This document shows positions 854-46,122 of a stretch of 64,000 nucleotides of DNA, piece by piece. A program made the translations under genes and the position numbers. This DNA is from an uncultured Armatimonadetes bacterium (GTDB taxonomy: Bacteria > Armatimonadota > UBA5829 > DTJY01). The notes below the pieces were generated by a model. The model had not been told where the DNA came from and did not search any database. It was given only the letters and a program-made list of their open reading frames with translations. The DNA is taken from the NCBI GenBank assembly GCA_963717145.1, contig OY970325.1, positions 3,010,448-3,074,447 on the forward strand, written 5' to 3'. Within the stretch, counting starts at the first letter, position 1, and each line of letters begins with the position of its first letter.

Positions 854-1063
854 GTAGGGGAGGCCTTCAACGGCCTCCCGCTCGGGCGGGCGTAGAAGCA
901 CCGCCCCTACAGCACATCGTTCCTGGTCCGTAGGGGAGGCCTTCAACGGCCTCCCGCTCGGGCGGGCGTAAGAAGCACCGCCCCTACAGCACATCGTTCC
1001 TGGTCCGTAGGGGAGGCCTTCAACGGCCTCCCGCTCGGGCGGGCGTAGAAGCACCGCCCCTAC
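854..1063. repeat. three tandem copies of REP family A (854-910, 930-987, 1007-1063) with 19-bp spacers
   Basis: Unit: GTAGGGGAGGCCTTCAACGGCCTCCCGCTCGGGCGGGCGTAGAAGCACCGCCCCTAC. The termini GTAGGGG/CCCCTAC are complementary and enclose two internal hairpins. The array lies between gspF and gspG. Confidence 0.9.
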
Positions 1064-2286
1064 CCTGATGTAAGATTCAGTTGGAATACCGGCAGGAGCA
1101 TCGCCATTATGATGAAGGCGATCATGCTCCCGACGGTGATTATGATCAACGGCTCGAGCAGCGAAACGAGGCTCTTCAGGGACGCATCGACCTCGACATC
1201 ATACGAATTCGCTACCGTGAGCAGTGTCCCCTGGAGGTCGCCGGTCTCCTCCCCGACGCCGACCATGTGGGTCAACAGCGGCGGAAAGACTCCGGTGTCC
1301 TTCAGTCGGGTCGCGAAACTCTCTCCTTCGCGCATACCTTCGCGCACCTGGTCCGCACCGCGCGCCAGCACCTCATTCCCCGCGACCTCGCGCACGACAA
1401 CCATCGAGTCGAGCAGCGGGACTCCGCCCTTGAGCAGTGTCGCAGTCGTTCTGGCAAACCGCGAGACCGCCGACTTCAGTATCAGCTTTCCGAACAGCGG
1501 CATCTTGAGCTTCCAGCGATCCACGTGCAGTCGTCCGTTCGTGCTGCGGCCGTACTCCTTCATCCCTACGACGAGACCGACAACCGACCCGATGATGAGC
1601 CACCACCAGTGTGTCAGGAACGCCGAAACCCCGAGCATGATGATCGTCGGCAGCGGGAGCGCCTGGTTGAACTCCTCGAAAATCGTTACGAATCGCGGGA
1701 CTACGAATGTCACCAGCAGGAAGACTGAACTCAGGCCGACCGTTATCAGGAGCACCGGATACGCCAGCGCGCTTCTGATCTGCAGCTTCTGGGTCTGCTC
1801 CTTCTCCTGATAGTCCGCGAGCCACAGCAGGACGTCGGACAACTGGCCACTCGCCTCGCCTGCTTTGACCATGCTGACGTACAGCGGCGGGAATATCCTG
1901 GGATGCGAGCTGAGCGCCTCCCAGAGCGCCTTGCCGCTCTGGACATCCTGCTGCATCCTCTGCATCACCGCGCGCAGTCGAGTGCTCTCCGTATGCTCGG
2001 TGAGGGCCGCGAACGTGCGCATCAACGGCAACCCGCCCGCGACGAGGTTGGCAAGCTGGCGACTGAATACCGTCAGATCGCGGCTATTGATCCCGCCGCC
2101 GACCTTGAATGCTTCCGCCCGAGTCTCGGACGCGGCTGATTGGCTGTCCCCGACGGCTCGGACATCCACAGGGAAGAGCCCCAGGCCCTTGATCTGCAGG
2201 ATGGCGGTCTTCTCATCGTCAGCGGTGACCCGGCCGGCAACCGATCGGCCTCCATTATCCAAACCTTTGTAAGTGAAACCTGGCAT
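1060..2286 (-). CDS. gspF: type II secretion / type IV pilus platform protein GspF/PilC family
   Basis: 408-aa ORF with two T2SSF-type repeats and predicted membrane helices (e.g. ALAYPVLLITVGLSSVFLLVTFVVP). Sits between gspE and gspG. Confidence 0.9.
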   Translation of the reverse strand: MPGFTYKGLDNGGRSVAGRVTADDEKTAILQIKGLGLFPVDVRAVGDSQSAASETRAEAFKVGGGINSRDLTVFSRQLANLVAGGLPLMRTFAALTEHTESTRLRAVMQRMQQDVQSGKALWEALSSHPRIFPPLYVSMVKAGEASGQLSDVLLWLADYQEKEQTQKLQIRSALAYPVLLITVGLSSVFLLVTFVVPRFVTIFEEFNQALPLPTIIMLGVSAFLTHWWWLIIGSVVGLVVGMKEYGRSTNGRLHVDRWKLKMPLFGKLILKSAVSRFARTTATLLKGGVPLLDSMVVVREVAGNEVLARGADQVREGMREGESFATRLKDTGVFPPLLTHMVGVGEETGDLQGTLLTVANSYDVEVDASLKSLVSLLEPLIIITVGSMIAFIIMAMLLPVFQLNLTSG

Positions 2287-2338
2287 ATTTCTTCAGTTAT
2301 CAGTCGTCAGTGGGAGTAGTCTCTGTCCGCGGCCCTGG

Positions 2339-2454
2339 CAAACCCCCTCGGCCCAGAGGCCGGTCCCCCTTCGTAAGGGGGACATCACCGAACCCCTCGC
2401 GCCAAAGATGTCCCCCTTACGAAGGGGGACCGGCCTCTGGGCCGAGGGGGTTTG
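2339..2454. repeat. long compound palindrome (about 46-bp arms, about 23-nt loop)
   Basis: CAAACCCCCTCGGCCCAGAGGCCGGTCCCCCTTCGTAAGGGGGACAT ... ATGTCCCCCTTACGAAGGGGGACCGGCCTCTGGGCCGAGGGGGTTTG. Each arm also contains its own small hairpin. Lies between gspE and gspF. Confidence 0.85.
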
Positions 2455-2466
2455 ACCGGCCGCCAA

Positions 2467-4155
2467 TCATTCCGCGATGTCGAGTTCGTCCTGCTGTGTC
2501 GCGCGGACGACCTCTTCGACAGTTGTGATCCCGGCGCGAACCTTCGACCAGCCATCCTGCCGGAGAGTCGTCATCTTTCGCTCGCAGGCTGAATCGCGGA
2601 TCTCGCCCGCCGGCGCTCGATTGAGTACCAGGGCGCGAATCTTGTCGTCAATCACGAGCAGTTCGAAGATGCCCGTCCGTCCGAGATAACCCCTTCGCTT
2701 GCAGTGCTCGCACCCCTTGCCCTGATAGAGAGTGCGCGATCCCGCCAGCTCGGCATCCTGTTGACGGAGCTTGGAAAGGACTTCATCGGCGTCCTTGCGG
2801 GGCTCCTTGCAGTTCGGGCAGATCACGCGCACGAGGCGCTGTGCGAGTACGGCCTCGACCGACGAGGCGACTAGATATGGTTCGATATCCATTTCGAGCA
2901 GGCGCGTGACGGCGCCTGCCGCGTCGTTTGTGTGCAGTGTGCTGAACACCAGGTGCCCCGTGAGCGCCGAGTGAATCGCGATCTCCGCGGTCTCGGGGTC
3001 TCTGATCTCACCGACCATGATGATGTCCGGGTCCTGGCGCAGGATGTGCCGGAGTCCGTTCGCAAACGTGAGGCCGATGCGCGCGTGTACCTGGATTTGG
3101 TTCACGCCGTCAAGCTGATACTCGACAGGGTCCTCGATGGTGATGATCTTCTTCTCCGGCGAGTATGCCCTCTGCAGCGCGCCGTAGAGGGTCGTCGTCT
3201 TACCGCTTCCAGTGGGACCGGTTGCGAGGATCATCCCGTGCGGGAGGGTGATCAGTTTCTCCATGCGCTTGAGGTCTGTCCCGAGCATCCCTACCTTCTC
3301 GAGGCTGTAACTCATGCTGCTCCGATCGAGGAGTCTCAGGACGACGCTCTCGCCGAACAGGGTCGGGACCGTCGATACGCGGATGTCGATCTCTCGTCCG
3401 CCGATCTTCGTTTTGATGCGTCCGTCCTGCGGCAGTCGTCTCTCCGCGATGTCGAGGTTCGACATGATCTTGAGGCGCGAGATGATCGCAGACTGGAGGC
3501 GTTTCGGCGGGGCCGAGATCTCATGTAGCATGCCGTCTACGCGGTAGCGGACATGGAGACCCTTCTCGAACGGCTCGACGTGTACGTCACTCGCGCGTTC
3601 CTGGACCGCCTGCCGAAGGACCAGGTTGACGAGCTTGATGACCGTCGCTTCCTTGGCCATCCGCTCGAGGTCGCCGATCTCGTCCTGCGACTCATCGAGG
3701 ATCTGTATCTCCTCGTCGGCGGTGTCGGCGATCATTCGCCGCATGTAGTGCTCTTCGACGAGGCGGCGTATCTCCTTCGGGTCGGCGAACACGAGATCGA
3801 CGGCGAGGCCGGTCACCATGCGGATGTCGTCCGCGGCGCAGATGTTGAACGGATCGGCGATGGCCACCTTGATGGTATGATCGCTAAGGCTCAGAGGCAG
3901 CGCCTGATGTCGGTAGGCAAGCTCGGGCGGAATGAGCGAGATCACCTGGGGATTCAGATCGTCTTCCCTGATGTCGATCAGGCATCCGCCTGCCTGTGCG
4001 GCGAGGGCTTCCTGCACCTTCTCAGGCGTGCAGAAACCCATATTGACGACTACCTCACCGAGGAGTTGGCCCGTATCGCGCTGCACGGCCAATGCCTGCT
4101 GCAACTGCTCTTCGGAGAGAGGTACTCGCTCCTGCAATAATTCGGCTATGCGCAT
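2467..4155 (-). CDS. gspE: type II secretion / type IV pilus assembly ATPase GspE/PilB family
   Basis: 562 aa with Walker A GPTGSGKTT, a hexameric secretion-ATPase core, a C-terminal CxxC...CxxC cluster (CPNCKEP...CEHCKRRGY) and an N-terminal T2SSE_N-like domain. Confidence 0.92.
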   Translation of the reverse strand: MRIAELLQERVPLSEEQLQQALAVQRDTGQLLGEVVVNMGFCTPEKVQEALAAQAGGCLIDIREDDLNPQVISLIPPELAYRHQALPLSLSDHTIKVAIADPFNICAADDIRMVTGLAVDLVFADPKEIRRLVEEHYMRRMIADTADEEIQILDESQDEIGDLERMAKEATVIKLVNLVLRQAVQERASDVHVEPFEKGLHVRYRVDGMLHEISAPPKRLQSAIISRLKIMSNLDIAERRLPQDGRIKTKIGGREIDIRVSTVPTLFGESVVLRLLDRSSMSYSLEKVGMLGTDLKRMEKLITLPHGMILATGPTGSGKTTTLYGALQRAYSPEKKIITIEDPVEYQLDGVNQIQVHARIGLTFANGLRHILRQDPDIIMVGEIRDPETAEIAIHSALTGHLVFSTLHTNDAAGAVTRLLEMDIEPYLVASSVEAVLAQRLVRVICPNCKEPRKDADEVLSKLRQQDAELAGSRTLYQGKGCEHCKRRGYLGRTGIFELLVIDDKIRALVLNRAPAGEIRDSACERKMTTLRQDGWSKVRAGITTVEEVVRATQQDELDIAE

Positions 4156-18821: not shown

Positions 18822-20409
18822 CAGCCTGTCTGAGAATTCCCCGCTATGTGGGTGAGTTTCCCATCTGCGGGGTCGCGCTGGCTGCTGTTCGATAGTGTTT
18901 TTCGCCGGATTTCCGGCGAGGGTCTGTAAAGACCCCTTGTACCTTGATAATCAGCCTGATCCAGGTCATATATCTACGTATCGAAGATCGATTTCCGGTC
19001 GCCGTATCGGTATAGCTTCAGCATGTTGTGCCCAAGACACGCAAGCGTCCACTCCGACTTCGCTTTCGCAAGGCCTCGGAGTAGGAAGCCTCGGAAGTTC
19101 CGTGCGCTCTTGATCTGGCCGAACACCGGCTCTACCGTCTCCTTCCGCCTCCCGTAGATCTTTCGGCCAAGAGGAGTCAAGAGCTTTGCTCTCTGGCGAT
19201 CTGCGGCGGATTGCTTTGCCGGATCAAGGCAGGAAGGCGCCGTCGGCTCTTTGCCATGACGTTGTCTGTCAGGCGGTATATAAGCGTCGATCCCTTGCTG
19301 CTCGACCATCTCTATGTTGTCGCTGCTGAAGTATCCGGCATCGGCGGATAGTTCTTCCGGTTTCTTTCCGGTGTTCTCCTTGATTGCCTCGATCATGTCA
19401 CTAAGATGCGGTGAGTCCGCTGCCTGGTTCGTGAGATCACACGCCACTACAATCTGATGATCTGCGTCTACCGCAGCTTGTCCGTTGTATGCCTGCACGA
19501 AGGCTTTCTTTGCGTCCTTCATTATCCGGCTTTCCGGGTCTGTGAAGTTCCGCTGTGCCTTCCCTTCCGGCTCTGTCTTTACGGGCCCCGGCTCTCTGCC
19601 GCGAGGCTTCTTCCCGGATGCTTCCTGCTCCGCCTTCTCTTGGGCTCGCATCGCTTCTTCGGCTGATGCTCGCTCTTTGGCCTCGCGCTCCAGCGCTTCT
19701 TTTGCTTCCCTGATCTTGGCGAGCCGCTTCTCTCTGGTTGCGAGTTCCTCCGGGAGTTCGTCTCCTCGGCGGTCAAGACCATATTCCGCGTCTTCCTGGT
19801 CGTCCACAGAAAGACCCTTCGCAAGGAGCGCCTCGATCTCAGCCTGAAGCTCTTTTTCTTTCTCGACCATCCGAGAGTAGCTCATGGCGGAGTGCTTGCT
19901 TGCGTTGGCAAGCAGCTTTGTTCCGTCTATGGCTATGTGTTTCATCGACACAAGCCCGGCGCTTGCGCATAGCCTGAGCACTTGCACAAACAGGTCCGCA
20001 AGGGACTTGAGATGCCTCTTCCTGAACTCGCTTATCGTGCGGAAGTCGGGATGATTTCCTGCCGCAAGCACCCGGAAGGCTACATCTTCATACGTGGCCA
20101 GGGAGAGCTTTCGAGATGAATACACTCCCCGGCACAAACCGTAGAATATGATCTTTGTAAGCATTGCCGGATGGAACGGCGGCGCTCCTCGGGCCTCTTT
20201 CTCGTATGAGGCGTATATCGCGGAAAGGTCGAGACTGTCTACGACATCGCTCACAAAGTATGCGAGATGTCCCTCGGGCAGCCACTCCGACATCAAGGGC
20301 GGCAACAGCAATATCTGGTCAGGTTGATAAGGAAGGTATGGCTTGCTCATACCCGTATTTTACTACATACCTGGCACCTTGCGCCAGAGGTTATTTCATG
20401 GACAGGCTG
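18822..20409 (-). mobile_element. IS1182-family insertion sequence (1,588 bp) with 4-bp CTAG target duplication
   Basis: Terminal inverted repeats CAGCCTGTC (18822-18830) and GACAGGCTG (20401-20409). They are flanked by CTAG at 18818-18821 and 20410-20413. One transposase ORF is present and GC is lower than in the flanks. Confidence 0.85.
18974..20350 (-). CDS. IS1182-family (IS5-like) DDE transposase
   Basis: 458 aa. N-terminus MSKPYLPYQPDQILLLPPLMSEWLPEGHLAYFV...PPFHPAMLTKIIFYGLCRGVYSSRKL is typical of IS1182 transposases. A coiled-coil middle section and a DDE C-terminal half follow. Confidence 0.9.
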   Translation of the reverse strand: MSKPYLPYQPDQILLLPPLMSEWLPEGHLAYFVSDVVDSLDLSAIYASYEKEARGAPPFHPAMLTKIIFYGLCRGVYSSRKLSLATYEDVAFRVLAAGNHPDFRTISEFRKRHLKSLADLFVQVLRLCASAGLVSMKHIAIDGTKLLANASKHSAMSYSRMVEKEKELQAEIEALLAKGLSVDDQEDAEYGLDRRGDELPEELATREKRLAKIREAKEALEREAKERASAEEAMRAQEKAEQEASGKKPRGREPGPVKTEPEGKAQRNFTDPESRIMKDAKKAFVQAYNGQAAVDADHQIVVACDLTNQAADSPHLSDMIEAIKENTGKKPEELSADAGYFSSDNIEMVEQQGIDAYIPPDRQRHGKEPTAPSCLDPAKQSAADRQRAKLLTPLGRKIYGRRKETVEPVFGQIKSARNFRGFLLRGLAKAKSEWTLACLGHNMLKLYRYGDRKSIFDT

Positions 20410-36173: not shown

Positions 36174-37226
36174 TCAGCTCAATGATCCCAACTCCACCGC
36201 TCGGGCAAGAGTATGGCGCTGCTCGTCGTCCACTTTGGTGAACTGCACGCCGTACTCCCAATTCTGATGTCCGTTGCTCGGCAGCTTGATCGCGCGGGTG
36301 ATCTTGCCGGTTCCAGAGAACTCATCGAGTCCCGCGATGCTGGACGCCTGGATCTTCACCATCGAGCCTGTCTGGAACTGCTCCTCTGTGATGATCTTGA
36401 GCCCGCCGGCGCCGATGTCCTGAGTGAACACTCGGAATGCCGGCCCTATGCTCGGTACGTCGGAGTGCCCATTCTTCTCGACAAGAGCCATATCGACCGC
36501 GATGCGGGCGGGCATTCGCGCATGCTTCCTGCGCTGAACACGATAGATCACGGCTGGCTTGCCGACGACTATCATCGGCAGGTACGAGTCCCGGATCGCC
36601 AGGATGGAAGTCTCGAAGCTGTAGAATGCATCGTCGCCGGCGAATCCGATCGACAGCGCCGACCCCGGCTTGAGGGGCACAGGGCCCGATCCGTTCGATG
36701 GGCACGCAACCGTGAGCGTGAGGTCGTCCTTCTCCTCGATCCGGCTGTGGTACTGGCCGACACCGTCTCCGTCGTGGATCTCCACGAGCAGCGGCTGGCT
36801 ATAGTTGAACAACACGGTCCGTACTGACTCGGACCAGTTGAGTGATTTTTGCCCGATCCCATCATCGAGAGTGGCCTTGACCAGGGCAACGAGGCTGTCC
36901 AGGTCGAACGGCTTGTTGACACATGCCGTGGCGCCCATTGAGAGGGCGCCGGCCATCGTGTCGTGGCTTTCATAGGCCGTCATGATGATGATGGGGATGT
37001 CTTTTCTGTCCTGACGAATACTCTGGAGGGCACTGATGCCATCCATGATCGGCATTCTGACGTCCATAATGACCATGTCGAAGTCGTTCCGACGGGTCTC
37101 TTCCACCGCCTCGGCCCCGTCATGCACGGTACGGACTTCATAGCCGGCTTTCCGCAACTCTGCATCGAGGACGCGACACAGGTTCATTTCGTCATCCGCG
37201 ACGAGTATGCTCCGTTTGTTGATCAT
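36174..37226 (-). CDS. response regulator receiver + PilZ domain protein (c-di-GMP binding predicted)
   Basis: REC: ILVADDE...DMVIMDVRMPIMDG...KPF. C-terminal PilZ motifs RRKHAR and DIGAGGLKI. GGAGG RBS. Confidence 0.85.
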   Translation of the reverse strand: MINKRSILVADDEMNLCRVLDAELRKAGYEVRTVHDGAEAVEETRRNDFDMVIMDVRMPIMDGISALQSIRQDRKDIPIIIMTAYESHDTMAGALSMGATACVNKPFDLDSLVALVKATLDDGIGQKSLNWSESVRTVLFNYSQPLLVEIHDGDGVGQYHSRIEEKDDLTLTVACPSNGSGPVPLKPGSALSIGFAGDDAFYSFETSILAIRDSYLPMIVVGKPAVIYRVQRRKHARMPARIAVDMALVEKNGHSDVPSIGPAFRVFTQDIGAGGLKIITEEQFQTGSMVKIQASSIAGLDEFSGTGKITRAIKLPSNGHQNWEYGVQFTKVDDEQRHTLARAVELGSLS

Positions 37227-37351
37227 TTCCCCATGCCTCCAACAGCAAACAAGGCTGACTGAGCCCGATGACCAGTCAGAAATACTATTATCTGCTCGTG
37301 AGTAGCGCTTCCCCGAGCCATTTTCATGCGATGCTGTCAGGAGTACTTATT

Positions 37352-37367
37352 GCACAAACCGTGCCAT
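37352..37367 (-). promoter_or_regulatory. sigma54 (-24/-12) promoter upstream of the REC-PilZ gene
   Basis: Minus strand reads aaTGGCACGGTTTGTGCAat, against the consensus TGGCACG-N4-TTGCW. The GG and GC dinucleotides are correctly spaced. It lies about 125-140 nt upstream of ATG 37226. Confidence 0.55.
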
Positions 37368-37456
37368 TGAAGGTACATGGGGCAAAGTCGGCGGAATATT
37401 TTTTTGAGGGACTGCGGTTGGTGGCTGTAACGCGATGCGAAACGACCGCAGAAACC

Positions 37457-37528
37457 GTAGGGGCGAAGCATTTGCCCACCGGATATGATGGAGCTTCCTT
37501 TCGATGCGCAAATGCTTCGCCCACCTAC
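37457..37528. repeat. REP family B, degenerate copy
   Basis: GTAGGGGCGAAGCATTTGC-N32-GCAAATGCTTCGCCCACCTAC. It contains the stop codon (37525-37527) of the activator gene. Confidence 0.8.
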
Positions 37529-38727
37529 ACCTGCTCGGTGGCGGCCTGGATCGCAAACGGCAGGAGGTCCGGGGTTATCAGATCGGATGTCGGGTCGGCA
37601 AGCACCACGCACCGCTCGATCGCATTCTCCAACTCGCGGATGTTGCCCGGCCAGTCGTACTTCATCACCAGTTCCAGCGCCTCGGGACTGAGGAACTTGA
37701 CCTCCTTGGCGTTCTCCTTGTTGAACTTCTGGATGAAGTGCTCGGCGAGCGGCGGTATGTCTTCCCTGCGCTCCCGAAGAGACGGCAGGAAGACCTGGAT
37801 GACCTGCAGACGATAGTACAGATCGGCGCGGAAGACGCCATCCGCGACCAGTTGCTCCAAATCGCGGTTAGTGGCCGCGATCAGGCGGACATCGACCTTG
37901 ACGGTCTTGGTGCCGCCGACGCGTTCGAACTCCCGCTCCTGAAGGGCTCGGAGGAGCTTGACCTGGACGGCGGGCGAGACCTCGGGAATCTCATCGAGGA
38001 ACAGAGTCCCCTGATGGGCAAGCTCGAACCGGCCGATCTTCTGGCCGGTCGCGCCTGTGAATGAGCCCTTCTCGTGGCCGAACAGCTCGCTTTCGAGGAG
38101 CGTCTCGGGCAGCGCGGCGCATGAAACAGCGACGAACTGCTTCTGAGCGCGCGGGCTGTTATAATGGATCGCGCGCGCGACGAGTTCCTTGCCCGTGCCG
38201 CTCTCGCCGCGGATGAGCACCGTGGCGTTGCTTCCGGCCACGCGCTCGATGATCTTGTAGACTTCCTGCATCTTCCCGCTCTGGCCGACGATGTTATCGA
38301 ACTTGTAGCGACCCTTCAGTTCCTGCTTGAGTTCGACGTTCTCGCCCATCAGGCGGCTTCGTTCGAGAGCATTCTTGACGACGAGCTTGATCTCATCCAT
38401 ATCGAACGGCTTGGTGATATAGTCGAACGCGCCAAGCTTCATGGCGTCCACGGCGGTCTTGATCGTGCCGTGGGCCGTGATCATGACGACGGACAGCCCG
38501 GGGTTCAATTCTCTCACGGCCTTCAGGACTTCCACACCGTTCATGTCGGGCATGATGAGATCGCATATGACGACGTTCAGGTTGGGATCGGTCGCAACGA
38601 CATCGAGGGCCTTCCGGCCATTGTCGGCCGTTCGGACCTGATAGCCGTCCTTGGTGAACACGGCCTCGAGTACGCGCCTGATATTCGGCTCATCGTCAAC
38701 TATGAGAAGAGACTTCTGCTCGTCCAT
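37525..38727 (-). CDS. sigma54-dependent response regulator (REC + AAA+), lacking the C-terminal HTH DNA-binding domain
   Basis: 400 aa. REC: LLIVDDEP...[11 protein letters not shown]...KPF. AAA+: Walker [15 protein letters not shown]-loop variant GSFTGA, Walker B LFLDEI, and [10 protein letters not shown]. The protein ends about 25 aa after that, with no Fis-type HTH. Confidence 0.9.
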
Positions 38728-38757
38728 ATTCTGCCTTTCTGGAATCGTCGGTAACCC

Positions 38758-38816
38758 GTAGGGGAGGCCTTCAACGGCCTCCCGAACACGGGCGGGCGTA
38801 GAAGCACCGCCCCTAC
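38758..38816. repeat. REP family A copy
   Basis: GTAGGGGAGGCCTTCAACGGCCTCCCGAACACGGGCGGGCGTAGAAGCACCGCCCCTAC, between the kinase and the activator. Confidence 0.9.
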
Positions 38817-38820
38817 GGCA

Positions 38821-41800
38821 CTAGTCGGTAACCCTGCGGCCCCGCTTCAGTAACTCGTCCTCACCCATCTGAACGGCGCTCTCCGCCTGCTCCAGAGCGG
38901 CGCGAGCCTTGTCACCACAGAGCGGGAGGTACACTTGGAAGGTCGTGCCCTGCCCCACCTGACTCTTGACTCGGATTCTCCCGCCGTGATTCTCCACGAT
39001 CTTCTGCACGATCGCAAGGCCGAGGCCGGTACCCTTCGTCTTGGTGGTGAAGAACGGCACGAAAATCTGCTTCAACTGCGTCTCTGTGATCCCCAGCCCT
39101 GTGTCAGTGACCGAGATGTTCACTCCATCCGGTTCAGAGGACGTCACAACCGACAGCTTACCACCTTCGGGCATAGCCTGCAAGGCATTCAAAATGATGT
39201 TGCGGAGCACCTGCTCGAGCTGCTTATCATCGGCGATGACTCTGGGGACATCATACGCCAGATTCGGCTCGACCTGCACGGCATGCTTGCTGATGTCCAT
39301 CTGCATGAACTGCAGCAGCCTGAACAGCACGTCATTGACATCGGTTTCCTTCAGGTTGAACCTGGTCGGCCGCGCGAAATCGAGGAACTCCGTCGTGATC
39401 TTGTTGAGGACGTTGACCTCTTCGATAATGATGTCGAGGAACTCGCACATGAGCACGTGGTCCTCGTACTCCTTGCGGATATACTGGGCGGCCCCTTTGA
39501 TGGAGCTTAGCGGATTGCGCAGTTCGTGAGCGATGCTTGCCGCAAGCTGACCGATCGCCGCAAGCTCCGAGATCCTGCGCATCTCGTTCTCCATCTTGAT
39601 CTCGCGAGTGATGTCCTCGAAGATGATGACCAGGCCCAGCATCTCCCCGACGTGGTCACGGAGTTGGGCAATATTCATATTGATATAGGCGACATCACCG
39701 TCGAGCCCGTGGTATTCCAGCTTGTAGCCCAGGTACTTCTGGCCGGTATCCATCACCCGTTGTATCGCGCCCAGGGTGCGAGCCCTATCCGCGGGCGAGA
39801 TATCGAGCTTCTCGATGACCTCGGGGAACCGCAGCCCGGCTACATCGAGCGCCTGAATCGACGTGATGTCCTCAGCCGCCCTGTTCCAGGTCAGCACGCG
39901 GCCTTCACGATCCAGGGTCAACACGCCGGCCGCGATGCTCCTGAGAATGTCGTCCGTGTAGCTGGCGAGCGCCGTGAGGGCCTCCAGTTCTTTGTAGAGG
40001 GCAGCCGCCTGAGACGCGATCACCGAGAGGATCTTGACGTTCTCCTCGGTGTACGCGTTCGGGGCGTAACTGTGGACGCTGAGCACTCCGACAACCTCGT
40101 CCTGGACGATCAGAGGGATGGCCATGAGCGACCTGACTTCCTTGCTTCGAGCGCCGGTCGCCGAACGGAATCGCGGATCCTTGCGAATATCTCGGGACAC
40201 GAGCGCCTTGCGCTCACGTATCGCCCAACTGCTCAACGTGTCCACGTCAAGAGGCAGGTCGCTGCCCGGAAGTGCGCTTTGCTCGACGCCCCGGCATGCC
40301 TGCGCAACCATTTTGCCCCGCTCGTAGTCGACTGTGTAGATCGAGCTTTCATCGTACCAGACGATGCCGCGCACGATATCGAGGATCGAATCGAAGGCCT
40401 CCTTGGGGCTGCCCGCGGTCGATATACGCTCCGAAAGCTGATAGAGAGCGGACAACTCGAGGACCTTCTGCTCCATCTGCTCTTCGTAACTGCTGGCGTT
40501 CTTGATGATAGTCGCCGCCTGAGCCGCGATGATCGAGAGCAGCCTGATCCGACGCTTCTCCGGAAGCCTTCCGTTGCTTCCGAGCATCAGAACACCGATC
40601 ACCCCGTCCTCGGCAACCAGCGGCACGAGGTTGATGCGCGAGAACGACTTGCCGAGCATGTCCGCGAGTGGGCGCAGACACTCCGGCCAGCGGCCTTTGC
40701 CCTGCGTCAAGAGACTCTGCGGCTCCCTGTGCCGGTGTATCCACGCGATCGCTTCGTCGCCGATCATGTCGGTGACCGACTTGCTCAGCTTCGTCGGCAC
40801 CGAGGCTGAGGCCCATACGCGCACCGGTGATTGTGGCCGGTTGTCCGTCAGTAGAAGCATCGCCGAAACGTCGCCGGTCAACTGTGCCGCCAGCCGAACG
40901 AGTGTATTGGCGGCGTTCTCGAGGCTGTAGGCGCTGCTCAGCTCGTTGCTCATCTCGTACAGGGTCGAAAGCTCCTGCACCCGCTCCTTGAGGCTCTGGT
41001 ACAGGTGCGCGTTCGATATCGCGAGCGCGGCCTGACTGGCAAAGACGCTGAAGAGCTTGACGTCATCCTGGGTAAACATGGCCGCCGGCGAGATGCGCCG
41101 GATGCTGAGTACGCCGTTGACGTGCCCCTCCTCGTCTCGCAGAGGTACGCAGATGGATGACACAATGTCCGGCCTCGGTGTGATCGACACGCCCGCAAAC
41201 CGCGGGTCGTCCTGAAGGTTCGTCAGCAGCATCGGCTCGCCGGTCTGCGCCACCCGGCCCGCGATGCCGTCGCCGTAGGCAACCCTGGTCTCTTCGACGA
41301 CCTCTTCCGAGAGGCCGTGGCTCGCCTTGATGATCAACTCGTCCTTGTGGGGATCCTTGAGCATGAGGGAGCAGGCCTGCGCATCCATAACCGCGGCGGC
41401 TTTCTCAGTGATGAGCTTGAGCAGATCATCGGTCTCGACGCTCTCTATGGCCTGGCTGATCTCGTAGACCGCCGAGACTTCCTCGATGCGTTTCTGAGCC
41501 GATCGGCCGGATGCGGGCGCGTTGAACGTCCGGGTCTCGCGGGACAGGTAGAGGGAGAGATGACGCGCCACCACAGAGAGGAAATCCTTGTCATCCTTTG
41601 CCAGGCGCTCGTCCGGACAGATGAGAGTGCCGAGCACGACCGAGTTCGCCTCGATGGGCACGGCCCAGAAAGATGATCCGTTCGACGAGACGCTGGCGGC
41701 GGATACCCGGCTCTTGGCGAACTCGCGCACGAGCAGGTCGCGGTCGACGGGCAGCTTCCGTGAAGACGCAGACCCAGTTCCCGCCGACAGGTACTCGGAG

Positions 41801-41958
41801 CCGTCATATCCGGGCAGCCATAGACCGACGGACTCGACCGGAAGTACATCCTTCGCACTGGCGAGGATCTTCCGAAGCGTCTGTCGGGGCTCTCTGGCTG
41901 AACTGGTAAGTGTTATTATGTCGCAGATTGCGCTGTAACGACCCGATGGATCGAGCAT
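38821..41958 (-). CDS. sensor histidine kinase with multiple GAF-like domains, a PAS domain, HisKA and HATPase_c
   Basis: About 1,045 aa from ATG 41958 (GAGGAG RBS; the track start is 42075). H-box ASIAHELRNPLSSIKG. N/G boxes LRNIILNALQA, DTGLGI and GTGLGLAIV. Long GAF-like repeats lie N-terminally. No obvious TM segment. Confidence 0.85.
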   Translation of the reverse strand: MLDPSGRYSAICDIITLTSSAREPRQTLRKILASAKDVLPVESVGLWLPGYDGSEYLSAGTGSASSRKLPVDRDLLVREFAKSRVSAASVSSNGSSFWAVPIEANSVVLGTLICPDERLAKDDKDFLSVVARHLSLYLSRETRTFNAPASGRSAQKRIEEVSAVYEISQAIESVETDDLLKLITEKAAAVMDAQACSLMLKDPHKDELIIKASHGLSEEVVEETRVAYGDGIAGRVAQTGEPMLLTNLQDDPRFAGVSITPRPDIVSSICVPLRDEEGHVNGVLSIRRISPAAMFTQDDVKLFSVFASQAALAISNAHLYQSLKERVQELSTLYEMSNELSSAYSLENAANTLVRLAAQLTGDVSAMLLLTDNRPQSPVRVWASASVPTKLSKSVTDMIGDEAIAWIHRHREPQSLLTQGKGRWPECLRPLADMLGKSFSRINLVPLVAEDGVIGVLMLGSNGRLPEKRRIRLLSIIAAQAATIIKNASSYEEQMEQKVLELSALYQLSERISTAGSPKEAFDSILDIVRGIVWYDESSIYTVDYERGKMVAQACRGVEQSALPGSDLPLDVDTLSSWAIRERKALVSRDIRKDPRFRSATGARSKEVRSLMAIPLIVQDEVVGVLSVHSYAPNAYTEENVKILSVIASQAAALYKELEALTALASYTDDILRSIAAGVLTLDREGRVLTWNRAAEDITSIQALDVAGLRFPEVIEKLDISPADRARTLGAIQRVMDTGQKYLGYKLEYHGLDGDVAYINMNIAQLRDHVGEMLGLVIIFEDITREIKMENEMRRISELAAIGQLAASIAHELRNPLSSIKGAAQYIRKEYEDHVLMCEFLDIIIEEVNVLNKITTEFLDFARPTRFNLKETDVNDVLFRLLQFMQMDISKHAVQVEPNLAYDVPRVIADDKQLEQVLRNIILNALQAMPEGGKLSVVTSSEPDGVNISVTDTGLGITETQLKQIFVPFFTTKTKGTGLGLAIVQKIVENHGGRIRVKSQVGQGTTFQVYLPLCGDKARAALEQAESAVQMGEDELLKRGRRVTD

Positions 41959-41990
41959 AAGTCTCCTCAAGTGCAGAGCTTCATGAGTGC

Positions 41991-42019
41991 AGTATAGCAC
42001 AGCGTAAATGCCGTAGCAA
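41991..42019 (-). promoter_or_regulatory. sigma70-type promoter for the kinase operon
   Basis: Minus strand reads TTGCTA-cggcatttacgctgtgc-TATACT (17-bp spacer), about 33 nt upstream of ATG 41958. Confidence 0.45.
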
Positions 42020-42123
42020 GCACCGGAGGACTTGCGCCATGCCGACGCTACGGCACAAAAACGGCCACCTCCCACTTGCGAAGATGGCCTTTACAGGTAT
42101 GTCACCACGGTCAATCGTCCCGC

Positions 42124-42944: not shown

Positions 42945-44231
42945 TCATCCGGGCTCTGCTTGAACGTGAACTGTGCCCGTCACCCGCCCGCGGCAGACGG
43001 CGTCGATCCTGACACTGACAATCTCGCCGATCAGGTGCTCCTCGGCCTTGAACTCGACCCTCACGTAGTTGTCGGTGAGACCGCCGAACAGCCCTCCGTC
43101 CAGATGCTTGCCTTCAACCAGCACAGACGACACTGTACCGATTATACCACAAGCGAAATCGTCGGCCTGGCGCCCGGCCAGGCGGATGAGCGTCTTGCTG
43201 CGACGATCTTTCTCGGCGACTGATACATCGTCGGCGAGCTTCGATGCCGCGGTTCCGGGTCTCGCGGAGTATCGGAATACGTGCGCGCGCGAGAACCGGA
43301 TGCCCTCGACGAATGCACGGGAGGATTCGAACTCGTCGTCCGTCTCGCCCGGAAATCCAACCATTATATCTGTGGTGATGCCGATACCCGGGATGCAGGC
43401 CCGCACGTTTTCGACAAACGCGGCGAATTCCTCCGGCGTGTAGGGCCGGTTCATCCGCTTCAGGACGCCGGCGTCGCCACTCTGCAAGGGGAGGTGCAGG
43501 TGCCGGCAGACGCGCCGATCCTCCGCCATATACTCTATGAGGCCCTCGGGGATGTCAGTCAGCTCGATCGAACTGAGACGCACTCGCTCGATACCCGGAG
43601 TCTCGGCCGCCATGCGCACTATGTCCGTGAGGCTCGTCCCATCGTCGTCCGCGTATCGGCCGAGACGAATCCCGGCGAGCACGATCTCCTTGAACCCGCG
43701 CGAGGCAAGGTCGGCGATCTCAGGGCCAATCTCGGCGCTGGGTCGGCTGTGAAGCACCGGGCGCGCAAACGGTACGATGCAGTAGGAGCAGAACTGGTCG
43801 CAGCCGTCCTGGATCTTGACGGTCGCTCTCGTCCTGGCCGGTCGCATGTGTTCGCCCCGACCCGGATCGAGAGTCGCTGCCAGTTCGGGCGAGAGTCGGT
43901 CCAGGACGCGCGCCAGGATATCACCCTTGTCCCGGTTGCCGAGCGCCATGGACACACCTTCGAGCCCCTGAGCGGCATCCGGCGAGGTCTCCGCAAAGCA
44001 GCCGGCGAGCACCACGAGCGCCTCGGGGCTCCGATGCCACGCATTTCGTGCGGCGTGACGGGACTTGGCGTCGGCGGTACTCGTGACCGTGCAGCTATTA
44101 ATGATATAGACATCCGCCCGATCCGCGAAATCGACGACGTCGAAGCCGGCGCGGAGGAAAGCCTCGACCATCGTACGGGTCTCGTATTGGTTTACCTTGC
44201 AGCCGAGTGTGTGAAATGCGACTTTGGCCAA
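42945..44231 (-). CDS. mtaB: radical-SAM methylthiotransferase, MtaB/MiaB family
   Basis: 428 aa. N-terminal UPF0004 domain (VAFHTLGCKVNQYE), radical-SAM CDQFCSYC, and a C-terminal TRAM-like domain. Confidence 0.85.
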   Translation of the reverse strand: MAKVAFHTLGCKVNQYETRTMVEAFLRAGFDVVDFADRADVYIINSCTVTSTADAKSRHAARNAWHRSPEALVVLAGCFAETSPDAAQGLEGVSMALGNRDKGDILARVLDRLSPELAATLDPGRGEHMRPARTRATVKIQDGCDQFCSYCIVPFARPVLHSRPSAEIGPEIADLASRGFKEIVLAGIRLGRYADDDGTSLTDIVRMAAETPGIERVRLSSIELTDIPEGLIEYMAEDRRVCRHLHLPLQSGDAGVLKRMNRPYTPEEFAAFVENVRACIPGIGITTDIMVGFPGETDDEFESSRAFVEGIRFSRAHVFRYSARPGTAASKLADDVSVAEKDRRSKTLIRLAGRQADDFACGIIGTVSSVLVEGKHLDGGLFGGLTDNYVRVEFKAEEHLIGEIVSVRIDAVCRGRVTGTVHVQAEPG

Positions 44232-44328
44232 ACGTATCCTCGCCCTTCTTGCGTCACGTCGGGGCTCTCATGCTACCAGACCGCCTCTCTCCTGTCAACG
44301 CAGATCGCGGTGGGGTGCATTTCCGCAG

Positions 44329-44461
44329 AGTGGGTCAGCCTCTCGTTATGCCACCAGAGTGGCTACTCGAGGAGAACGGTTGTGGTCTGCCGTGAGTCCA
44401 TGGCCCACAACCGTTCTCCTCGAGTAGCCACTCTGGTGGCATAACGAGAGGCTGACCCACT
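44329..44461. repeat. very long perfect hairpin (about 57-bp stem, about 18-nt loop)
   Basis: AGTGGGTCAGCCTCTCGTTATGCCACCAGAGTGGCTACTCGAGGAGAACGGTTGTGG ... CCACAACCGTTCTCCTCGAGTAGCCACTCTGGTGGCATAACGAGAGGCTGACCCACT. Confidence 0.9.
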
Positions 44462-44483
44462 GAACTCGAATGCGCCCATCGCG

Positions 44484-44548
44484 GTGTTCGGGCGGGTACA
44501 AACTCCGGATGCGGTGGCCGTTCCCGGAGTTTGTACCCGCCCGAACAC
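44484..44548. repeat. hairpin (25-bp stem)
   Basis: GTGTTCGGGCGGGTACAAACTCCGG-N15-CCGGAGTTTGTACCCGCCCGAACAC. Confidence 0.9.
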
Positions 44549-44690
44549 CCAGTTGGGAGTTTCTTTCTGGCGGCAACAACTGCGAGACAGGCACAGTACC
44601 CTGCTCAGAATGGCAATCTGCGGCTCCCCGTTCACGGTTTCGAAGACGTTTCGTCACCAGAAAGAAGAATTTTCGCGGAAGTGACGCGAG

Positions 44691-44706
44691 TGGCACGGTT
44701 TTTGCA
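44691..44706 (+). promoter_or_regulatory. sigma54 promoter P1 (exact consensus)
   Basis: TGGCACGGTTTTTGCA equals TGGCACG-N4-TTGCA at every defined position. It is 309 nt upstream of the PEP-CTERM gene ATG. Confidence 0.65.
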
Positions 44707-44821
44707 CTATGCACCACTGACCCTGAATCGAGGGGGCCCGCAGTTCGATCTTTGCAAACTCATGCCGAGGAGACCGCGAAAGTACTGGGATCAGAAATAT
44801 TTCTCAGCCGACCGGTCTGAT

Positions 44822-44837
44822 TGGCATGGTTCTTGCA
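44822..44837 (+). promoter_or_regulatory. sigma54 promoter P2
   Basis: TGGCATGGTTCTTGCA has one deviation (C6 to T) from the consensus and correct -24 GG / -12 GC spacing. It is 178 nt upstream of ATG 45015. Confidence 0.6.
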
Positions 44838-45014
44838 AGTATGGACAGTGGGAACGCGGACGAGGCAAGCCGCCGCTGCCGAAGGGAAACCGGAAAGCAG
44901 CAGGACCGTCCAACCCATGATTCGTTTTCAATCTGCGATGCAAGTGCCTGGTACCCAAACGGCGGCCGGGTGAGCGCGCCAGATCGCTAAACTATCCGAA
45001 AGGAGCATCAGACA

Positions 45015-45794
45015 ATGCGAAAGGTTCTAACATTTGCACTAGCCGCTCTCATGGTAGTGGCGATCGCGGGCGCTTCGAGCGCCGCAGCCCCGAATCCTCT
45101 TAACTGGAGGTTCAACTTCATCACCGACAACGGCGCAGGCTTATTCGCGGCCAGCAACTTCCAGCTCGGCGTCTCCCCGACCTCGGTGGATGGACCCGAT
45201 ACGATCTTGCCTCTCCAGGACCTGAAGGCCAGTTTCGGAACCGACCTTCCCGGGACCGGTCACTGGACAGTCAGCCTTGTTCCCGGTGACACAACGAACC
45301 TGTATCTGCACGACCTGCAGTCGAACGCTTCGCCGTACACCTATACGGAACCCAGGAACACCAAGCTGTGGAATCTGCGGGTCGCAGGGAATTCAAGTGC
45401 TACGGGCGCTCTGCACTTGTCGTTCACCACCACGGGCTTGACGCAGCCGTCGGTCGATCAGGACGGAAAGCCGGTCTTCTACGAGATGCGGATGATCAAC
45501 AACCGAGGTATGGCAGGCGCGCCGACCAACGGCACCATCTGGAACATCCCGATCCCGGCCTCCGGCACGGCATCAAACGTGAAGTTCTGGGACATGGCGG
45601 TCAACGCCGATACCAACGGTACCGTATGGGGCAACATGCCGCTCATCAACGTAAGCGTTCCGAACTACGCCAGCTTCCGTGACGAGGGTTACGAGATGCA
45701 GTTCCGAATGGTCCCTGAGCCGAGCAGCATGCTCGCAATGGGCAGCGGTCTCATCGGACTGATCGGAGTCGCGATCCGCAGACGGAGAGCGTAA
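45015..45794 (+). CDS. PEP-CTERM sorting-domain secreted protein
   Basis: Signal peptide MRKVLTFALAALMVVAIAGASSAAA. C-terminal VPEPSSMLAMGSGLIGLIGVAIRRRRA gives PEP + TM helix + Arg cluster. AAAGGAG RBS. Confidence 0.85.
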   Translation: MRKVLTFALAALMVVAIAGASSAAAPNPLNWRFNFITDNGAGLFAASNFQLGVSPTSVDGPDTILPLQDLKASFGTDLPGTGHWTVSLVPGDTTNLYLHDLQSNASPYTYTEPRNTKLWNLRVAGNSSATGALHLSFTTTGLTQPSVDQDGKPVFYEMRMINNRGMAGAPTNGTIWNIPIPASGTASNVKFWDMAVNADTNGTVWGNMPLINVSVPNYASFRDEGYEMQFRMVPEPSSMLAMGSGLIGLIGVAIRRRRA

Positions 45795-45906
45795 CCAAAG
45801 TAAGGGAAGAGCTTTCGACCCGACTTGACAGAAGGTGTGCTGTAAGGCCGCCGGGTCAGCGAAACAAGAAAAACGCTAATCTTCCTGAAGCACACCATCA
45901 AGCAAG

Positions 45907-45942
45907 AACCGCCCGGTTGACGAACCGGGCGGTTTTCTTTTT
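45907..45942 (+). terminator. Rho-independent terminator
   Basis: AACCGCCCGGTT-GACG-AACCGGGCGGTT followed by TTCTTTTT, 113 nt downstream of the PEP-CTERM gene stop. Confidence 0.8.
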
Positions 45943-45944
45943 GC

Positions 45945-46122
45945 GGAATGGTTGATGGTTGATGGTTGATGGTTCATGGGGGGATGGGGAAGGGAATGGT
46001 TGATGGTTCATGGTTAATGGGGGAATGGGGAATGGTTGATGGTCGATGGTTAATGGTAGATGGGGTATCCGGCCCCCATCAACCATGAACCATCAACCAT
46101 CAACCATTCCCCATTCCCCCCC
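45945..46122. repeat. repeat family E: array of GGTTGATGG-type 9-mers folding into a ~47-bp imperfect hairpin
   Basis: Left arm 46019-46065 pairs with right arm 46074-46120 (3 mismatches). Extra direct copies lie at 45945-46018. The last 7 codons of the epimerase gene (GGMGNG*) lie inside it. Confidence 0.85.

Follow-up and report, generated by a model that had tools for sequence, protein, structure and literature searches.

The non-coding region analysed here precedes a gene for a 259-aa secreted PEP-CTERM protein (45015-45794, + strand) in a 64-kb stretch of contig OY970325.1 (hereafter the window), whose host is apparently a member of the Armatimonadota. This region probably constitutes a conserved unit, consisting of a sigma-54 double promoter and a structured leader RNA, that serves a single-gene PEP-CTERM operon. 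As we read it, the unit would run in the order of tandem promoters P1 and P2 (each with its own A/T tract), a conserved block placed relative to P2 as an enhancer would be, a two-domain leader, and a strong ribosome-binding site.

The promoter pair and its conservation

The upstream promoter, P1, is of the -24/-12 type and was located at 44691-44706 (+), where its 16-mer (TGGCACGGTTTTTGCA) matches the consensus exactly. The 16-mer of the downstream -24/-12 promoter, P2 (TGGCATGGTTCTTGCA), was located at 44822-44837 (+). The two 16-mers lie 131 nt apart from start to start and end 309 nt (P1) and 178 nt (P2) before the ATG at 45015, just as the original prediction had placed them. Transcription is predicted to start near 44717 from P1 and near 44848 from P2, which would give leaders of ~298 nt and ~167 nt, respectively. 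At every defined position, both sites agree with TGGCAC-N5-TTGCW, in which exactly one turn of the helix separates the GG from the GC. Two exact matches to the pattern TGGCAYGNNNNTTGCW were found in the window, compared with 0.02 expected from 100 dinucleotide-preserving shuffles, none of which gave two. A third sigma-54 site (TGGCACGGTTTGTGCA, 37351-37366, - strand) has one mismatch. A GGTT spacer core had been noticed earlier and is indeed common to all three window sites, but it is not a signature of such sites, as orthologous spacers read GCTT, GATT, GAAT, AGTT, and GATA.

Both promoters sit inside a 783-nt intergenic region between mtaB and the open reading frame at 45015-45794. An A/T tract was observed ~17-19 nt 5' of each -24 element (AATTTT at 44668-44673 (+), ~17 nt from P1; ATATTTCT at 44796-44804 (+), ~18 nt from P2), and because the tracts stand at an equal offset, P1 and P2 share an identical layout. 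These tracts might act through DNA bending, or in an IHF-like or UP-like manner. A recent tandem duplication was considered as the source of the pair and rejected, given that there is no extended repeat and that the common parts are limited to the core and the A/T tract. Transcription solely from a sigma-70 site close to the ATG had been named earlier as evidence that would speak against sigma-54 control; the + strand of the intergenic region contains no sigma-70-like site, and in the RNA contigs of relatives described below the first base is never closer to the ATG than 114 nt upstream.

Fifteen protein homologues with 33-54% identity were collected and their loci compared; every one of them stems from a metagenome or a metagenome-assembled genome. 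Metagenome and genome collections were also scanned with a P2-leader pattern, which returned seven metagenome loci and one genome locus, mostly duplicates. The resulting conservation set comprised 10 distinct upstream regions whose proteins are 36-54% identical. P2, which ends 164-178 nt upstream of the start codon, was kept in all 10 of these loci, and P1 in nine, with the 16-mers 108-133 nt apart (124-149 nt from start to start). The TGGCA, TT, and TTGCA portions are invariant in the kept promoters, and substitutions were confined to position 6 (C/T) and the spacer. Within ±4 kb of every locus, the P1/P2 pair alone accounted for the sites scoring at least 10/12. The A/T tracts were likewise retained, as a T-run occurs at the matching offset 5' of P1 in eight of the nine lineages that have P1 and 5' of P2 in all 10, and the form TTTT(T)C/G is conserved at the P2 tract position in 10/10 lineages.

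The gene order mtaB, PEP-CTERM, epimerase is common to most loci, and HIT, YqeY, and 7TM-HD protein genes lie beyond mtaB in the relatives. Two loci (L007 and L013) have a different upstream context, with URO-D and SSF transporter genes, and because the promoter-leader unit is retained in these non-syntenic loci, it appears to travel with the gene. Nucleotide identity to the relatives was about 50-58% (background) in the 100 nt upstream of P1, 59-86% in the P1-P2 segment, and 58-68% in the coding sequence. For the leader, it was 71-85% in the six closest relatives and 58-61% in L007, L019, and L012. On these per-region values, the non-coding unit is therefore constrained at least as much as the protein. 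As judged by sequence comparison, the P1/P2 pair is a conserved feature rather than a chance feature of one genome. It is also very probable, as originally predicted, that the PEP-CTERM gene is a sigma-54 target, with -24/-12 elements kept across loci whose proteins have diverged this far.

A further conserved block (CGCAGTTCGATCTTTGCAAA, 44739-44758, +) was identified upstream of P2 and is a candidate activator-binding site (enhancer) for this promoter. Its consensus is GCAGTTCGA(A/T)C(C/T)TTGCAAA (also written GCAGTTCGAxCyTTGCAAA), and in the window it covers -83 to -64 from P2, with its end 65 nt before P2. The block starts 79-84 nt 5' of the P2 16-mer in eight of 10 lineages, and its distance to P1 varies between 27 and 50 nt. 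Relative to the predicted P2 start it occupies about -108 to -89, which is the usual position of a sigma-54 enhancer. This fixed spacing suggests that a DNA-binding activator encoded elsewhere may act at P2. In Proteobacteria, a 17-nt motif 1 ending in TTTACA precedes the sigma-54 motif of PEP-CTERM genes by 62.8±10.6 nt (Haft et al. 2006, PMC1569441). The block resembles it by ending (TTTGCA(AA)) and by spacing (65 nt before P2), and this resemblance, judged on these two properties, is a lead and not a match.

The leader RNA and its transcription

A consensus structure was predicted using RNAalifold on the 10 leaders, taken from P2 to the ATG (~165 nt). Domain 1 (44858-44911, +) is a predicted three-way junction with a closing stem GGACG/CGTCC and the hairpins GGC-AAGCC-GCC and GCUGC...GCAGC. 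Domain 2 (44935-44987, +) is a predicted long bulged hairpin with stems GCGAU/AUCGC and GUGCC/GGCGC, and its apical loop GCGGCCRG (44962-44969) is invariant in all 10 lineages. The leader ends in a Shine-Dalgarno sequence AAGGAG (45000-45005, +), 9 nt before the ATG, at which GAAAGGAGC is invariant in 9/10 lineages.

Overall, 86.7% of the cells in the leader consensus are paired. Helices 1-4 of domain 1 are 86-88% paired with compensatory changes in eight pairs, and in helices 5-7 of domain 2 compensatory changes were found in 11 of 14 pairs. The resulting 19 pairs changed on both sides compare with 6.8±1.8 in column shuffles, none of which reached 19 in 500 attempts. In a slid control, where the 3' partners were moved by 1-3 columns, only 2-5 pairs changed on both sides. 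Further pair types numbered 33 in the leader versus 26.9±1.9 in shuffles. The suggestion that the long leader is itself regulatory or functional thus gains support from conservation at least equal to that of the coding sequence and from the compensatory base-pair changes.

When the longer P1 transcript was folded, domain 1 was recovered and domain 2 refolded differently. The P1-specific 130 nt between P1 and P2 gave no supported fold, with only three weak pairs. Folding of the whole P1 transcript also paired the P2 core with the distant ribosome-binding-site region, but these long-range pairs are uninformative because they are invariant on both sides. Two other proposals were rejected. A pairing of GCCGCCG in domain 1 with CGGCGGC in the domain 2 loop carries uncompensated 5' side changes in L007, L019, and L012 and never varies on its 3' side. 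A small open reading frame in the leader is interrupted by scattered 1-nt indels, with stops in all three frames in eight of the 10 lineages.

The leader (44838-45014) had no match at gathering score in Rfam 15. At E ≤ 10, none was found within it save at its first two bases, which are touched by a weak MIR848 hit (44748-44839), and the other matches at this level concerned unrelated upstream hairpins or the P1 region. The leader is put forward as a candidate new cis-regulatory RNA, and it is the most original part of the case.

In locus L013 (5234-5314), a second tandem PEP-CTERM copy is preceded by domain 2 and the ribosome-binding site only, without a sigma-54 site. Because domain 2 was copied there without a promoter, it is suggested to work at the RNA level.

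Public metatranscriptomes provided RNA evidence from five runs (X15, X16, X17, X19, and X20) of three studies, covering ice, sediment, and rice paddy. The mapped RNA contigs are assembled and stem from relatives (92-95% identical) and not from the source organism. The X16 (44732-45018) and X15 (44796-45082) contigs run through P2, and those of X17 (44876-45082), X19 (about 44863-45082), and X20 (about 44901-45082) begin past the predicted P2 start, 15-53 nt downstream of it. All contigs but that of X16 connect the leader with the first 68 nt of coding sequence, and because these four join the two, the leader is a 5' untranslated region. The two contigs that pass through P2 need a start further upstream, which is consistent with P1.

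No long piece of mtaB was found in any of the five runs, and in the probable DNA runs X1 and X3 a relative's mtaB and leader were present at equal depth. The signal in the five runs is for this reason attributed to RNA rather than to carried-over DNA. Run X18 was left out of the RNA evidence because depth-2 mtaB pieces are present in it and it may hold DNA; in runs X21 and X22, nothing was found. The contigs support transcription of a leader joined to the coding sequence in environmental relatives, as supportive but not decisive evidence.

Mechanism and competing explanations

In the mechanism that we favor, P2, which is universal in the family, would be the main promoter. P1 would be a second real sigma-54 promoter that adds a ~298-nt leader transcript reading through P2. 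Both promoters would depend on an AAA+ activator, and the gene would therefore be off without a signal and could be strongly expressed with one. The folded leader would most likely set mRNA stability or translation via a protein or ligand bound at the invariant GCGGCC loop. The window encodes an activator of its own that has both a sigma-54 interaction domain and a GSFTGA loop, which counts for the sigma-54 reading.

Several observations weigh against this account. P1 has been lost in lineage L012 (128-143), where only the degenerate GCCGTATGATTTTACA is left of it. The gene, its leader, and P2 are all intact there, making this locus a natural P2-only variant. The whole unit is missing in the distant homologues L010, L017, L026, and L027. 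Of these, L010 comes second in a tandem array of genes. Promoters and leader alike are absent from L017, whose protein is 33% identical, and from L026 and L027, which each reach 37% in the protein alignment. In place of the sigma-54 pair, L017 carries a sigma-70-like TTGACT-N16-TATAAT. Neither rpoN nor an exosortase gene was found among the 30 largest open reading frames of the window. The pair counts were made on the very 10-sequence alignment from which the leader structure had been predicted, and in minimum free energy the window leader does not surpass shuffled sequences (z = 0.15). The RNA contigs are of low depth (2-8x), strand-blind, and from relatives of the source organism. The X16 contig and a contig of the probable DNA run X1 share their first base (44732), and for this reason contig ends are not taken as 5' ends.

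As a side observation, 7-nt tandem repeat arrays (GCATCGA/GCATCCA)n occur in two of the distant homologues, L026 (~420-470) and L017 (~2900-2950), just 5' of sigma-70-like promoters.

A possible, though not a likely, alternative is that both promoters are activated from solution by a protein without a DNA-binding domain, encoded at 37525-38727, and that the doubled promoter replaces an enhancer. This protein belongs to a group of genes at 36174-42075 (-) that consists of a GAF/PAS kinase (38821-42075), the NtrC-type REC-AAA+ activator in question, the third sigma-54 site (37351-37366), and the REC-PilZ gene that this site precedes. The activator sequence has the GSFTGA loop and stops after the AAA+ lid, with no helix-turn-helix (HTH) domain, and upstream of P1 nothing is conserved beyond the A/T tract, both of which fit activation from solution. 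Against this, no relative's locus has the kinase-activator cassette in the vicinity of the PEP-CTERM gene, and the block at a fixed enhancer distance from P2 suggests a DNA-binding activator instead. The original prediction had also pointed to the PrsK/PrsR two-component pair of PEP-CTERM systems. This link was not borne out for the neighboring proteins, as the activator reached 401.2 of the 502.6 bits required by TIGR02915, aligning to model positions 1-387 of 445, and lacks the Fis-type DNA-binding domain, and the kinase scored 110.6 bits on TIGR02916 (cut-off 300), where the catalytic core alone matches.

It is unlikely that P2 is the sole productive promoter and that P1 is a conserved docking site for sigma-54 holoenzyme, ~130 bp upstream, that yields no useful transcript. 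Such a site might have an architectural or regulatory role, in which it would hold polymerase near the block, compete for the activator, or block upstream read-through. P2 is universal, and the decay of P1 in L012 left the rest of the unit intact. The block and leader are positioned relative to P2 and not to P1, the P1-specific RNA segment has no conserved fold, and three of the five informative RNA contigs start downstream of P2. However, P1 looks complete and has its own A/T tract at a P2-like offset, and the X16 and X15 contigs, which come from runs free of mtaB sequence, cover part of the P1-P2 segment, cross P2, and continue into the leader. A fixed protein-protein geometry is furthermore disfavored by the P1-P2 spacing, which varies (124-149 bp) without keeping to helical phase.

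More ambitious, and quite unlikely as a whole, is a new two-layer circuit for envelope or matrix proteins outside Proteobacteria, in a lineage with some sigma-54 activators that naturally have no DNA-binding domain. In it, complete tandem sigma-54 promoters would usually replace enhancers for strength, and the two-domain leader with its invariant GCGGCC loop would be an undescribed riboregulator, binding a ligand or a protein and gating a major exosortase-sorted surface protein.

We consider it highly improbable that leader conservation reflects DNA-level operator sites downstream of the promoters rather than RNA structure. The unremarkable single-sequence folding energy would fit operators, as would conserved stretches such as GCGGCCRG, which are uninformative on pairing because they never vary. 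The 19 compensatory pairs, however, lie far above the shuffled and slid controls, the 3' half of the leader was duplicated with coding sequence and without a promoter in L013, and the leader region is transcribed. The last alternative, a separate small RNA driven from P1 and ending before P2, was raised in the original prediction and is barely credible: the P1-P2 segment is conserved (59-86% identity), but it contains no terminator-like site and no consensus structure, and the RNA contigs are continuous across P2.

Gene neighborhood and comparison with known systems

The predicted protein tail, VPEPSS-TM-RRRRA (TM, transmembrane segment), was confirmed in the open reading frame at 45015-45794. 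The protein exceeded the cut-offs of Pfam PF07589 (26.5 versus 20.7 bits) and TIGR02595 (21.7 versus 16 bits), and its translation begins with a Sec-type signal peptide (MRKVLTFALAALMVVAIAGASSAAA). An AlphaFold model gave an all-beta sandwich as the core (pLDDT 78), for which a fold search of the PDB returned no significant match (best E = 0.49). Membership in the flocculation protein family PepA (NF033554) was rejected, as the match of 31.5 bits falls below the equivalog cut-off of 80 and covers the C-terminal 97 residues only. The gene is followed by its own strong intrinsic terminator (45905-45946, +) with a 14-bp stem and a T-run, and is for this reason considered monocistronic. No exosortase was found in the ±4-kb flanks of the relatives' loci.

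Upstream of the unit, mtaB (42945-44231, -) was identified by TIGR01579 (383 bits, above cut-off). Between mtaB and P1 are two long hairpins (44313-44477 and 44475-44557, with arms of 73 nt and 34 nt) that have no second copy in the window and no counterpart in any relative's locus; as an insertion, they account for the longer intergenic region (783 nt, compared with about 420-520 nt in relatives). In the probable DNA runs X1 and X3, depth over 44306-44453 was about 5-30x that of the flanks, which suggests a multi-copy community element. Elsewhere in the window, the genes at 1060-4155 (-) encode a GspF-like platform protein and an ATPase of the GspE type that has an MshEN domain at its N terminus. 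MshEN is a cyclic di-GMP-binding module, and the ATPase may relate to the REC-PilZ gene in the window. A DDE transposase gene (DDE_Tnp_1 / DUF772) of an insertion sequence was found at 18974-20350 (-).

To our knowledge, sigma-54 control of PEP-CTERM genes has been shown by experiment only in a few Betaproteobacteria. The unit described here would extend the link between sigma-54 and PEP-CTERM genes to a distant uncultured lineage of soil and sediment bacteria. There it would take a different form, with tandem promoters kept over long evolutionary distances and a candidate new structured leader. Environmental RNA, in the form of low-depth contigs from relatives, suggests good expression of the gene in communities from ice, sediment, and rice paddies. 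The parts are compact (P1/P2 module ~330 bp, leader 165 nt) and suited to sigma-54 assays and RNA probing, and they bear on how sigma-54 promoters may be tuned where activators cannot bind DNA.

Sigma-54 activators without a DNA-binding domain include Helicobacter FlgR and Chlamydia CtcC. The activator 6 kb upstream of the PEP-CTERM gene is similarly a REC-AAA+ protein without an HTH domain that could act on any sigma-54 promoter from solution, but in relatives it is not syntenic with the PEP-CTERM gene, and an enhancer-like block is present here. Genes for abundant envelope proteins such as Lactobacillus slpA and E. coli ompA have multiple promoters and long stabilizing 5' leaders. These genes resemble the present one in their tandem promoters, long folded and conserved leader, and strong ribosome-binding site, and they differ in that their promoters are of the sigma-70 type, whereas both promoters here are of the sigma-54 type, which would make them strictly activator-dependent. 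A literature search for tandem sigma-54 promoters of natural origin returned nothing but synthetic or unrelated cases.

In Proteobacteria, sigma-54 sites precede PEP-CTERM genes and were predicted to respond to PrsK/PrsR, and the motif upstream of these sites was found in Proteobacteria only (PMC1569441). The region analyzed here is like the proteobacterial one in its single-gene operon, large intergenic region, and -24/-12 site, and it has a conserved block at a comparable distance upstream of that site (PMC1569441). It differs in having two promoters instead of one, in its apparently Armatimonadota host, and in a neighboring kinase and activator that fail the PrsK/PrsR models. Its leader, at 167-298 nt, is structured and two to four times longer than the leader of about 71 nt in that region (PMC1569441).

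The floc-formation PEP-CTERM gene pepA of Aquincola tertiaricarbonis depends on RpoN1 and has a single mapped -24/-12 promoter (PMC9850573). Like the present gene, pepA is monocistronic, has its own terminator and a -24/-12 promoter, and encodes a secreted PEP-CTERM protein of similar size (PepA, <29 kDa), to which the weak C-terminal match to the PepA model adds a further likeness. RpoN dependence was established by experiment for pepA, whereas it is predicted here (PMC9850573). The two systems also differ in architecture, as a single promoter serves pepA within ~85 nt of intergenic sequence, whereas two promoters precede the gene described here (PMC9850573).

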